Below are positions 41,591 to 43,827 of a DNA stretch of 43,827 nt, one piece after another; position 1 is the first letter of the stretch; every line of letters starts with the position of its first letter. Where the stretch lies: NCBI GenBank assembly GCA_001577055.1, contig LSCG01000004.1:1-43827 (forward strand), read 5' to 3'. Position numbers and translations under genes: made by a program. Under the pieces are notes generated by a model. The model was not told the DNA's origin and did no database searches. It saw only the letters and a program-made list of their open reading frames with translations. This DNA is from Fidelibacterota bacterium TCS56 (lineage in GTDB: Bacteria > Fidelibacterota > Marinisomatia > Marinisomatales > TCS56).

Positions 41591-42709
41591 ATGCGAATTG
41601 GTGTACCAAAAGAAATTAAGAATAACGAATCCAGGGTCGCTCTGACGCCCCACGGCGCACTGGAACTGGTGAATCAGGGACATGAAATACTGGTCCAGAA
41701 GAGCGCCGGGATCGAGAGTGGTTTTACCGATGAAACTTATAGTGATGTAGGCTGCCGTTTGATTGACACGGCCAAGGAAGTCTTCGATAATGTGGAAATG
41801 ATAGTGAAGGTGAAAGAACCACAGCCGGTGGAAATCGAGATGTGCCGGCCGGATTTGACCATGTTTACTTATTTTCATTTTGCCGCCGAAGAAAAATTGA
41901 CCCGTGATTTTCTGGCTACCGGCGCCACGGCCATCGCTTATGAAACCATCATGACCGATGATGGCAAACTGCCGTTGTTAATCCCCATGAGTGAAGTAGC
42001 CGGCCGGATGGCCACCCAGGAAGGAGCCAAATATCTGGAACGACCATTCGGCGGGAAAGGTATCCTGCTGGGCGGCGTTCCAGGTGTGAAACCGGCTACG
42101 GTCACCGTGCTTGGTGGTGGTGTGGTCGGTACCAATGCCGCTAAAATTGCGGCCGGGTTCGGGGCCAAGGTGTATATCCTGGATAATAACCTGGATCGCC
42201 TGCGTTACCTGGACGATGTCATGCCGCGCAATGTCCGCACCTTGTACAGCAATCAATACAATCTGATGGAATTACTGCCGATTACCGATCTGCTGATTGG
42301 CGCCGTCCTGATTGTGGGAGCCAAAGCACCCAAGCTGGTGACCCGCGATATGCTGAAATTAATGAAACCGCGCAGTGCCATCGTTGATGTTTCGGTGGAC
42401 CAGGGTGGTTGTATCGAAACCTGCAAACCCACTACTCACGAGCATCCCACATTTGAGGTGGATGGCGTGATTCATTATTGTGTGGCCAATATGCCCGGTG
42501 CCGTTCCGTTTACATCCACGGTAGCCCTTACCAATGCCACCGCGCCTTACATGCAGAAACTGGCCAATAAAGGCGTTCTGGAAGCATTGAATTCCGACCC
42601 TTCACTGTTGTTAGGTTTGAATACCTATCGAAAGCAGATCACCCATCTGGGTGTGGCGGAAGCTTTCGGCATGGATTATGTCGATCCAGCCACTGCAATT
42701 TCCGGCTGA
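41591..42709 (+). CDS. ald: Alanine dehydrogenase
   Basis: IGVPKEIKNNESRV, KVKEP, PMSEVAGR, GGGVVG, HYCVANMPGAVP.TST. Confidence 0.97.
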   Translation: MRIGVPKEIKNNESRVALTPHGALELVNQGHEILVQKSAGIESGFTDETYSDVGCRLIDTAKEVFDNVEMIVKVKEPQPVEIEMCRPDLTMFTYFHFAAEEKLTRDFLATGATAIAYETIMTDDGKLPLLIPMSEVAGRMATQEGAKYLERPFGGKGILLGGVPGVKPATVTVLGGGVVGTNAAKIAAGFGAKVYILDNNLDRLRYLDDVMPRNVRTLYSNQYNLMELLPITDLLIGAVLIVGAKAPKLVTRDMLKLMKPRSAIVDVSVDQGGCIETCKPTTHEHPTFEVDGVIHYCVANMPGAVPFTSTVALTNATAPYMQKLANKGVLEALNSDPSLLLGLNTYRKQITHLGVAEAFGMDYVDPATAISG

Positions 42710-42805
42710 TTCCGCAACAATATCTTTGACAAAATGGCTTGTATTGATTCCCGATAGGGAGTTAATATCAAGTGTTGCTTTAATTCCGAATTCGGAGAAT
42801 CGATT

Positions 42806-43204
42806 GTGGATCAGGGCATAAAAAAACTGTATTATTCAATCAGTGAGGTCAGCAAAATTACCGGCCTTAAGGCCTATGTACTGCGGTACTGGGAGACTGA
42901 ATTCAAGCAGTTGGCCCCGCCTAAAAATCGTGCCGGCAACCGGACTTATCGACAAAAGGATATTGATTTTATTCTACTGTTAAAGGACCTGTTGCACGAA
43001 CAGAAATTCACAATTGAAGGTGCTAGAATAAAGCTGGCGGAGAAACCGGTCAAAACCGAAGAGGTTTATTCGGAGCCGGTGAGCGCACCGACGGTCGATG
43101 AAAATCTTGATACGTCCGATGATGAAGTCGATTCAAGTCATAAAAAAATCCTGCGCCATATCCGTCAGGAATTGGAAGCCGTTTTAGAAATATTGCAAAG
43201 ATAA
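42806..43204 (+). CDS. MerR-family HTH regulator (type usually adjacent to tRNA-Pro)
   Basis: KLYYSISEVS...YVLRYWETEF..L.P.K...NR.Y...DI...LL....FTIEGA. Confidence 0.92.
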   Translation: MDQGIKKLYYSISEVSKITGLKAYVLRYWETEFKQLAPPKNRAGNRTYRQKDIDFILLLKDLLHEQKFTIEGARIKLAEKPVKTEEVYSEPVSAPTVDENLDTSDDEVDSSHKKILRHIRQELEAVLEILQR

Positions 43205-43206
43205 AT

Positions 43207-43281
43207 CGGGGCATGGCGCAGCCCGGTTAGCGCGCATGACTGGGGGTCATGAGGTCGGGAGTTCAAATCTCCCTGCCCCGA
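43207..43281 (+). tRNA. tRNA-Pro(GGG)
   Basis: Acceptor CGGGGCA/TGCCCCG. Anticodon arm CATGA-CTGGGGG-TCATG. T-arm GGGAG-TTCAAAT-CTCCC. Confidence 0.95.
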
Positions 43282-43827
43282 CAATAAAGCCTGGCCGTTT
43301 GGCCGGGCTTTTTTTTTATTGAGGATAGAGGTCACCTGCACCGCTTACCAGCGGTCTTCGGTGGGCAGGCACGGGGCAAAGAGCTTAGAGCTGAGAGCAA
43401 AGAGCAAAGAGCAAAGAGCAAAGAAGAGCAGGGGGTGTCGGTGGGATGAGAAGTTTACAGTTAATCGGTCGGGAGTTCCCTGCCCGCCAAAGTACGTCGC
43501 AGACGGGCGTCGGCGGGAAATCTCCCTGCCCCGACAATAAAGCCTGGCCGTTTGGCCGGGCTTTTTTTTTATTGAGGATAGAGGTCACCTGCACCGCTTA
43601 CCAGCGGTCTTCGGTGGGCAGGCACGGGGCAAAGAGCTTAGAGCTGAGAGCAAAGAGCAAAGAGCAAAGAGCTTAGAGCGCAGAGGTGCCGGGGAGATGA
43701 GGTGATGAGGAGAAAAAACTTGTTTGTCGGGAGTTCCCTGTCCGCCGTAGCTTTAGCGCAGGCGGGCCTGCCCGCCAAAGTACGTCGCAGACGGGCGTCG
43801 GCGGGAAATCTCCCTGCCCCGACAATA
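43265..43827 (+). repeat. Tandem array of tRNA-Pro 3'-end units with periods of 253 and 288 nt, truncated by the window end
   Basis: AAATCTCCCTGCCCCGACAATA occurs at 43265, 43518 and 43806. 43265-43419 is identical to 43518-43672. Units contain AGAGCNN heptamer tracts and CCTG-headed hairpins. Confidence 0.95.
43286..43317 (+). terminator. Intrinsic terminator after tRNA-Pro, repeated at 43539-43570
   Basis: AAAGCCTGGCC-GTTT-GGCCGGGC followed by T9. Confidence 0.85.

Follow-up and report, generated by a model that had tools for sequence, protein, structure and literature searches.

Short CCTG-footed hairpin cassettes interrupt the T-loops of partial tRNA-Pro copies in a Fidelibacterota genome and may be tiny non-autonomous mobile elements

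Mini-derivatives of IS200/IS605 elements (PATE type) lack terminal inverted repeats and do not duplicate their target; they carry a hairpin with a short 5′ extension, enter in one orientation and stack at the same site. Integron attC sites measure 57-141 nt and carry R″ and R′ boxes (RYYYAAC...GTTRRRY), while Rickettsia palindromic elements are about 100-150 nt long. In the part of PMC3733652 at hand, the latter are palindromic repeats inserted in frame in protein genes, and repetitive extragenic palindromic (REP) sequences tagged with GTAG or CGTC are found nested in palindromes and inside open reading frames (ORFs). Here we analyze a 43,827-nt stretch of Fidelibacterota bacterium TCS56 (contig LSCG01000004.1, forward strand; the window), which is an entire contig (C77) of a 1.94-Mb genome in 161 contigs that is 87.6% complete. 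Near the end of the window an intact tRNA-Pro(GGG) gene is followed by two partial copies of its 3′ half, whose T-loops are split by hairpin cassettes of 39 nt and of 30 plus 39 nt. By their sequence, these blocks are members of a dispersed family of CCTG-footed hairpins found in many bacterial phyla, and with a probability of roughly 0.58 we take them for a tiny non-autonomous mobile hairpin element inserted in dead tRNA 3′-end copies.

The intact tRNA-Pro(GGG) occupies 43207-43282 of the forward strand (ARAGORN; Rfam tRNA score 63.1 bits), and its uninterrupted T-loop, TTC^AAAT, represents the "empty" site (the caret marks the joint). All parts of the interrupted copies lie on the same strand. 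Copy 2 starts with the 5′ piece GGTCGGGAGTTC (43467-43478), which corresponds to tRNA positions 47-58 (the end of the variable loop, the 5′ strand of the T-stem and TTC), continues with a 39-nt cassette (43479-43517) composed of a CCTG foot, a CCCGCC/GGCGGG stem and an inner hairpin, and ends with the 3′ piece AAATCTCCCTGCCCCGACA (43518-43536), equivalent to tRNA positions 59-76 plus an A. In copy 3, the 5′ piece GTCGGGAGTTC (43726-43736; tRNA positions 48-58) is followed by a 30-nt cassette (43737-43766), variants of which are 83-93% identical in other genera and phyla, and then, head-to-tail on it, by a second copy of the 39-nt cassette (43767-43805; 61-nt repeat, 100% identical). The 3′ piece AAATCTCCCTGCCCCGACA recurs at 43806-43824 in the last segment (43806-43827), and the contig stops at 43827. 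The cassettes split the pseudo T-loops exactly at TTC^AAAT, and no base is duplicated at the junctions. The initial annotation, made from the letters of the window, had described tRNA-Pro 3′-half copies with 0, 1 and 2 cassettes at one T-loop position, and both the sequence and the ARAGORN coordinates agree with it. The pattern CCTGYCCGCC-N10-30-GGCGGG matched 3 times in the window, compared with 0 matches in 100 dinucleotide shuffles. Folded as a single strand, a cassette presents a free 4-nt CCTG foot, an outer stem of 5-6 bp, an internal loop and a small apical stem. When the region 42700-43827 was searched against Rfam at E ≤ 10, the tRNA alone was recovered, the remaining rows being sub-threshold terminator look-alikes.

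Cassettes recur in relatives, where the initial annotation had suggested looking for them: of 121 genomes belonging to the order, 53 contain the pattern CCTGYCCGYC-N8-34-GRCGGR, with top copy numbers of 66, 57 and 46 per genome (0-3 for a reversed-pattern control). All copies carry the CCTG tag, and the family spans 24-50 nt in many phyla. Some relatives repeat the arrangement of the window closely. The tRNA-Pro locus of G013:C12 carries a variant of the 39-nt cassette at the identical T-loop step, and in G004:C8 two 120-nt units stand in tandem behind the tRNA-Pro(CGG), with a 30-nt cassette that shows compensatory stem changes; uninterrupted tRNA-Pro pseudo-copies in G004:C66 and G001:C38 represent the empty state. 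Beyond T-loops, cassettes occupy D-arm remnants, coding sequences, heptamer repeats and other hairpins, and the cassette alone was found in 84 of 2.9 million viral contigs. Stacks are head-to-tail (the window, G126:C49, L429), and the window units additionally carry a diverged reverse copy about 110 nt upstream. Many cassettes adjoin short heptamer tandem repeats or sit between mutually pairing flanks, and other heptamer and nonamer tandem repeats lie beside cassettes of relatives. The idea of a flank stem was set aside as weak: a stem of at least 6 bp was present in 9 of 87 cases, compared with 3.55 on average and 9 at most when the data were permuted 200 times. Two identical cassettes 2.4 kb apart in G046:C157 enclose a weak Wzi-like ORF and a GIY-YIG ORF, with no transposase.

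Paired stem positions covary (117 instances: C-G 99, T-A 8, C-A 6, T-G 4), and the interior motif GAAGCCTTGGCGCA, with near variants, is nearly identical across distant phyla. Such conservation could also mark a structural module kept for its function, for instance by disabling attR and so preventing the excision of an island, by hindering re-integration, or by stabilising RNA or terminating transcription that reads through the tRNA. The orientation of the cassette relative to the tRNA is constant at T-loop sites, and the pseudo T-stem lengthens the cassette hairpin into one long hairpin (fold z −2.2), both in favour of such a module. However, the cassette has no Rfam match, runs antisense to the tRNA in D-arm remnants, and is found in frame in genes as well as among intergenic repeats, and we judge selection for such a function to be an improbable explanation.

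Filled and empty states of the same site were available in three comparisons. The tRNA-Ser(TGA) of Aquimarina is empty at one locus (L215) and carries a 40-nt cassette exactly at TTC^GA at another (L191); at both loci, this gene belongs to arrays of 12-15 consecutive tRNA genes. A Y1_Tnp gene (L322) contains a 33-nt in-frame cassette between AAAATCTG and GATGCAC, and in two genes 89-90% identical to it (L342 and L323) AAAATCTG runs directly into GATGCAC. Two homologues that are more distant likewise carry a cassette at this site; at least 15 others, among them the C147 gene of the TCS56 genome, have it uninterrupted. At a further site, IRNQ^EEHH in the protein, near-identical 30-nt cassettes are present in L322 and L325, whose proteins are 51% identical, and the site is empty in L350 and L323. 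No junction in the three comparisons shows a duplication, in line with the junctions of the window and with what the initial annotation had stated of target sites there. We conclude that the cassettes were genuinely inserted, that their ends are defined and that the target was not duplicated. The same pairs show that cassettes resembling REPs flanking a transposase gene are insertions into the gene. In another Y1_Tnp gene (L351, G010:C63) the coding region holds a cassette-like block on the opposite strand, and a weak Y1-like ORF of the TCS56 genome (C85:8600-8800) is enlarged by tandem repeats.

One genome from each of 185,579 species was scanned for TTC, a cassette and RAWYC in succession. 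At least 120 such stretches were found, in Patescibacteria/Saccharibacteria, Ignavibacteria, Bacteroidota, Marinimicrobia/Fidelibacterota, Planctomycetota and others; some matches in GC-rich coding regions look like chance. Eighty-two matches in 80 loci were read. Among the matches listed, an intact same-strand tRNA lies 12-300 nt upstream in 33 of 82, the 14-nt 3′ piece recurs at the end of that tRNA in 16 of 82 (at most 2 mismatches), and removal of the cassette restores a full tRNA in 1 of 82. In a phylum sample of 301 genomes the forward T-loop pattern matched 20 times, in 13 genomes, and the control pattern never did. The reverse-orientation pattern gave 6, three of which are forward sites read on the other strand; the remaining three, too, contain a forward cassette when the opposite strand is read, so that at most three reverse sites stand against the 20 forward ones. 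One T-loop of this sample (G126:C49) holds two different stacked cassettes. The same T-loop cassettes as in two genomes of the order were found in records titled Fidelibacterota and Marinimicrobia (L173 and L172).

A further 87 instances were collected irrespective of their flanks. TTC precedes 4 of these 87 cassettes, and 1 of 87 sits in a full T-loop context; the left flank leans toward CCTG or CCTA and the right flank toward AAGG, with T at position −2 in 49 of 87 and R/A after the joint. T-loops are a recurrent but minority landing site: insertion at TTC^RA, inferred by the initial annotation from one locus, recurs in many genomes and phyla. T-loop insertions are almost restricted to incomplete tRNA copies, and the best interpretation is that purifying selection removes those that strike functional tRNAs.

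For some interrupted copies, the origin of the tRNA piece can be read from the surroundings. In L239, a tRNA-Glu abuts a large serine recombinase gene, and an interrupted copy follows after 4.8 kb; in L180, a tRNA-Leu is followed by 5.2 kb with a tyrosine integrase and then by two interrupted copies. In both loci the interrupted copies are displaced ends of integrated elements. As at tRNA att sites, direct repeats of the tRNA 3′ end start from the T-arm, and the displaced copy lies 3′ of the intact tRNA. Unlike att sites, the window has copies just 214-258 nt apart and no recombinase (PF00589 matches of the genome sit on other contigs), and the loop of the displaced copy is split by a hairpin. 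In G001:C38, a GIY-YIG mini-gene fills the space between a tRNA-Pro(CGG) and its uninterrupted pseudo-copy, and the unit repeats, which looks like a homing unit carrying a spare tRNA end. The GIY-YIG ORFs of G001 start at the tRNA-Pro 3′ end and stop inside the D-arm of the pseudo-tRNA. Small ORFs consisting of GIY-YIG only (82-120 aa) form tandem arrays with periods of 320-440 nt in G001:C38 (L036), G046:C157 (L436), G012:C127, G010:C72 and G021:C24. In pseudo-tRNAs that reach the D-arm (L036, L038, L010, L228), a TCCCGA-loop-TCGGGA hairpin replaces the anticodon arm; this replacement was seen in three genera of the order and in one Bacteroidota record, and in L063 the hairpin has a CCTG foot. 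The ORFs of the window array have no Pfam match, and in a tblastn search (E ≤ 100) two GIY-YIG mini-proteins found no match within 43200-43827. Since the window units hold neither a Pfam-matching ORF nor a GIY-YIG remnant, their origin as remnants or local duplications is inferred. Nothing points to the decoy role that the initial annotation had assigned to these T-arms; where the surroundings can be interpreted, they prove to be the displaced ends of elements integrated in tRNA genes, or they follow GIY-YIG mini-genes.

An alternative is that a cassette-bearing T-arm arrives ready-made as the attP of an integrative element. Pseudo T-stems often differ from those of the neighbouring tRNA yet pair (for example, in L186), as would be the case for foreign att DNA. 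However, the T-loop plus cassette pattern had 0 matches in the 2.9 million viral contigs in which the cassette itself does occur, which argues that the cassette enters after integration and not as part of attP. Moreover, two unrelated recombinase families accompany T-loop cassettes, and the window has no recombinase. We hold a ready-made attP to be very improbable.

The window contains further repeats around the cassettes. Upstream of the tRNA lie genes for an alanine dehydrogenase (41591-42709) and a MerR-family protein (42806-43204). A 160-nt block, which runs from the 3′ half of the T-loop through the tRNA end, a terminator and a reversed hairpin to heptamer repeats, is present at 43265-43424 and again at 43518-43677 with 99% identity (repeat search; both on the forward strand). 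The repeat unit thus extends beyond the tRNA piece, and about 45-48 nt preceding each pseudo T-arm are diverged between units. Within the block, a terminator-like hairpin with a T-run lies 3′ of the tRNA (43288-43317, repeated at 43541-43570; inverted repeats, forward strand), followed by a cassette-related hairpin of the CCTG-CCCACC type on the minus strand (43335-43369; second copy at 43588-43622) and by seven tandem copies of the heptamer GCAAAGA (43376-43424, forward strand; TRF; second array at 43629-43679). The reversed hairpin folds at −10.4 kcal/mol (minus strand, 43330-43375; z −3.16).

The mechanism that we propose joins these observations as follows. The element combines the CCTG foot with a YCCGYC/GRCGGR stem and an apex that varies, much like a REP with a different tag. 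It would insert in a single orientation, with no target duplication, at sites whose left flank is rich in pyrimidines (TTC, CTG, CAG) and whose right flank opens with a purine (GA or AA). The GGTTC^RAWYC of a T-loop would suit such a target, and insertions in T-loops would persist only where the T-arm serves no working tRNA. The two pseudo-3′ ends of the window would be dead copies, left-over or duplicated tRNA ends such as tRNA-integrating elements produce, multiplied here as tandem units of about 255 nt. Probably one copy first received the 39-nt cassette, duplication or homogenisation of the unit came next, and the 30-nt cassette may have entered later at the TTC^ of copy 3. This order of events, as well as the origin of the pseudo-copies, is inferred. 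A much broader formulation appears rather unlikely to us: that the cassettes are pan-bacterial "nano-transposons" of about 30 nt with CCTGCCCGCC...GCAGGCGGG ends, spread from Patescibacteria to Bacteroidota, Fidelibacterota and virus-like contigs, which are moved by a non-RAYT enzyme, home to the TTC^RA T-arms and AGCT^CAG D-arms of tRNA-gene remnants and permanently disable the attR of islands.

A single-strand route of the HUH type fits the cassettes, with their defined ends, 4-nt foot by a hairpin, lack of duplication, single orientation at a given target and head-to-tail stacks. On this basis mobilisation in trans by a single-strand-specific HUH/Y1 (IS200/RAYT-like) transposase can be suggested, but only tentatively. 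The genome carries 5-6 Y1_Tnp genes; none of these genes is flanked by a cassette. Instead, their loci are flanked by other hairpins (CCACGGGC..., CCCACGnnnnnnCGTGGG and CACCCCTTCGGGGT). Five IS200/RAYT-like genes (C79:16040-16396, C147:217-561, C123:4151-4495, C122 and C29) each have their own kind of short GC hairpin, which implies several REP-like families in one 2-Mb genome. Overall, 4 of 32 scanned Y1 loci hold a cassette, and two of these cassettes, at gene starts, are in-gene insertions. GIY-YIG proteins were considered as a partner and rejected, as their counts do not track those of cassettes (7-10 matches in five cassette-rich genomes versus 2-9 in five cassette-free ones).

Several results weigh against a mobile element of this kind. 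No mobilising enzyme was found among the genes of the window, as the initial annotation had noted, or among the Y1_Tnp loci examined: a cassette lies near none of the 6 Y1_Tnp loci of the genome and near none of 8 such loci from five further genomes, and the Y1-adjacent cassettes of G012 and G011 are insertions inside the gene and not flanking repeats. Genome G053, with 25 cassettes and 95% completeness, has no PF01797 match, and two genomes of 0.6-0.7 Mb with 5 and 3 cassettes have no Y1_Tnp match. The target consensus is weak, and there is none among the cassettes of viral contigs. Cassettes alone fold no better than shuffled sequences (z −0.85 and −1.40). A narrow pattern finds 4 cassettes in the genome, every one beside tRNA pieces, and a looser pattern finds 6; with so few copies there is no sign of current activity. 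Furthermore, an unrelated 22-nt insert occupies TTC^AAAT in G004:C66, and a 28-nt insert from another family occupies a T-loop on C114 of the TCS56 genome, so the site itself may attract insertions. Finally, the tandem order of the window array is that of the short-read assembly.

The foreign inserts, found at the same or neighbouring T-loop positions, would be expected if the site rather than the element were the driver, that is, if a recombinase or homing endonuclease cut the displaced att T-loop and the break were repaired with abundant short hairpin DNA. The interrupted copies at the far end of the serine recombinase and tyrosine integrase elements described above, and the GIY-YIG mini-genes between tRNA and pseudo-copies in G001:C38, are consistent with this. 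On the other hand, this cassette also occurs, with identical ends, in coding sequences and many non-tRNA sites, an identical junction would be needed from two unrelated recombinase families, and in many cases 12-130 nt separate the interrupted copy from the tRNA, without any intervening element. We regard capture at a broken site as distinctly unlikely and return to insertion of a defined element as the preferred explanation.

The number and order of units in the window come from short-read assembly across the 160-nt repeat, and the contig ends in copy 3; they could therefore reflect strain alleles with 39-nt and 30+39-nt inserts that were chained through the common repeat. Such an artefact would account for a contig that ends inside a repeat and for 160 nt that are 99% identical while the flanking 45 nt or so have diverged, and the best-matching read runs, labelled brine metagenome, contain 62-68% of the sampled words. 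Tandem interrupted copies, however, also occur inside contigs elsewhere (G004:C8, G074:C125, G258:C89, G100:C11 and L180), and chaining of alleles seems to us unlikely. That an "ordered" system is at work, as the initial annotation proposed, is a claim drawn from this one array and is not supported. In relatives, too, the tRNA-Pro gene can lie near the end of a contig (within about a dozen bases in L003, L005 and L009), and repeats 3′ of it may often be what breaks the assembly.

We also looked for fragment copies near all 27 tRNA and tmRNA genes of the genome and found four further cases of tRNA-fragment copies or hairpins beside tRNA genes. Downstream of the tRNA-SeC (C55, 2529-2622, minus strand), there are two copies of the T-arm and acceptor strand, 87 nt apart, with a 34-nt CCCACC...GGTGGG hairpin between T-stem and acceptor strand, amid AAAGATA/AAAGTAT heptamers; in the relative G013:C55, a CCTG cassette lies within the T-loop of a tRNA-SeC remnant. 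On C87, the last 14 nt of the tRNA-Asn recur twice 3′ of the gene, both times after a hairpin. At the tRNA-Arg(CCG) locus (C114, 480-790), it is the T-loop of a 3′ pseudo-copy that carries the 28-nt insert, and the repeat family of this insert also adjoins a cassette in G053. Upstream of the same tRNA there is a 5′ fragment with AGCT at its end and, after it, a reversed CCTG cassette; this AGCT^CAG D-arm site is also used in an Ignavibacteriaceae genome (G123). GCAAAGA heptamer arrays occur elsewhere in the genome (C147:806-848, C113, C11 and C123), two of them near Y1_Tnp genes. A truncated GIY-YIG ORF (C138:4390-4530) lies about 200 nt 3′ of the tmRNA gene, and an intact 108-aa GIY-YIG ORF (C129:7022-7291) lies between direct repeats of about 27 nt.

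How do the cassettes compare with the described systems? Like REPs and REPINs, they are imperfect GC-rich palindromes of 20-40 nt with a conserved 4-nt end tag and tens of dispersed copies, and the resemblance to REP and IS200-type substrates drawn by the initial annotation is upheld by the foot, the hairpin and the covarying stem. They can nest in other palindromes and inside ORFs, as do REPs in the available part of PMC3733652. Their tag, however, is CCTG and not GTAG or CGTC; neither CCTG nor CAGG appears in that part of the paper, whose supplements may list more tags. REPINs are inverted pairs; the stacks seen here are head-to-tail, with a diverged reverse copy also present in each unit of the window. 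No RAYT gene was seen flanked by cassettes. As both the GTAG/CGTC tag and RAYT flanking are missing, we do not file the cassettes as members of a RAYT system. With PATE-type elements they have in common the lack of terminal inverted repeats and of target duplication, a hairpin with a 5′ foot, what looks like one orientation per target, and stacking, but a cassette is a single 24-50-nt hairpin without two distinct end hairpins, and no fixed tetra- or pentanucleotide target was found, just T at −2 and R/A after the joint. Rickettsia palindromic elements likewise insert in frame in genes, but are longer and limited to one genus, whereas the cassettes are found in many phyla. Integron attC sites were rejected, since cassettes lack R boxes and, at 30-39 nt, are too short. 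We therefore file the cassettes as a variant of the REP/mini-transposon kind, in which the CCTG tag and T-loop landing are new relative to the REPs in the portion of PMC3733652 at hand; that portion describes no T-loop or D-arm preference for REPs, its mentions of tRNA concerning other things, and literature searches on T-loop hairpin insertions and on REPs in tRNA-gene T-loops returned nothing.

If our explanation is correct, the cassettes would rank with the smallest pieces of mobile DNA whose ends are defined, common to very distant phyla including the tiny-genome Patescibacteria, and their landing preference for the T-loop of dead tRNA ends would be one that neither the accessible part of PMC3733652 nor the searched literature describes. 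The filled and empty pairs are concrete test substrates for finding the mobilising enzyme, and the repeats explain assembly breaks in tRNA-proximal regions of these metagenome genomes. Insertion of a cassette in the crossover region of attR should block excision, and the cassettes thus bear on how integrated islands become fixed.
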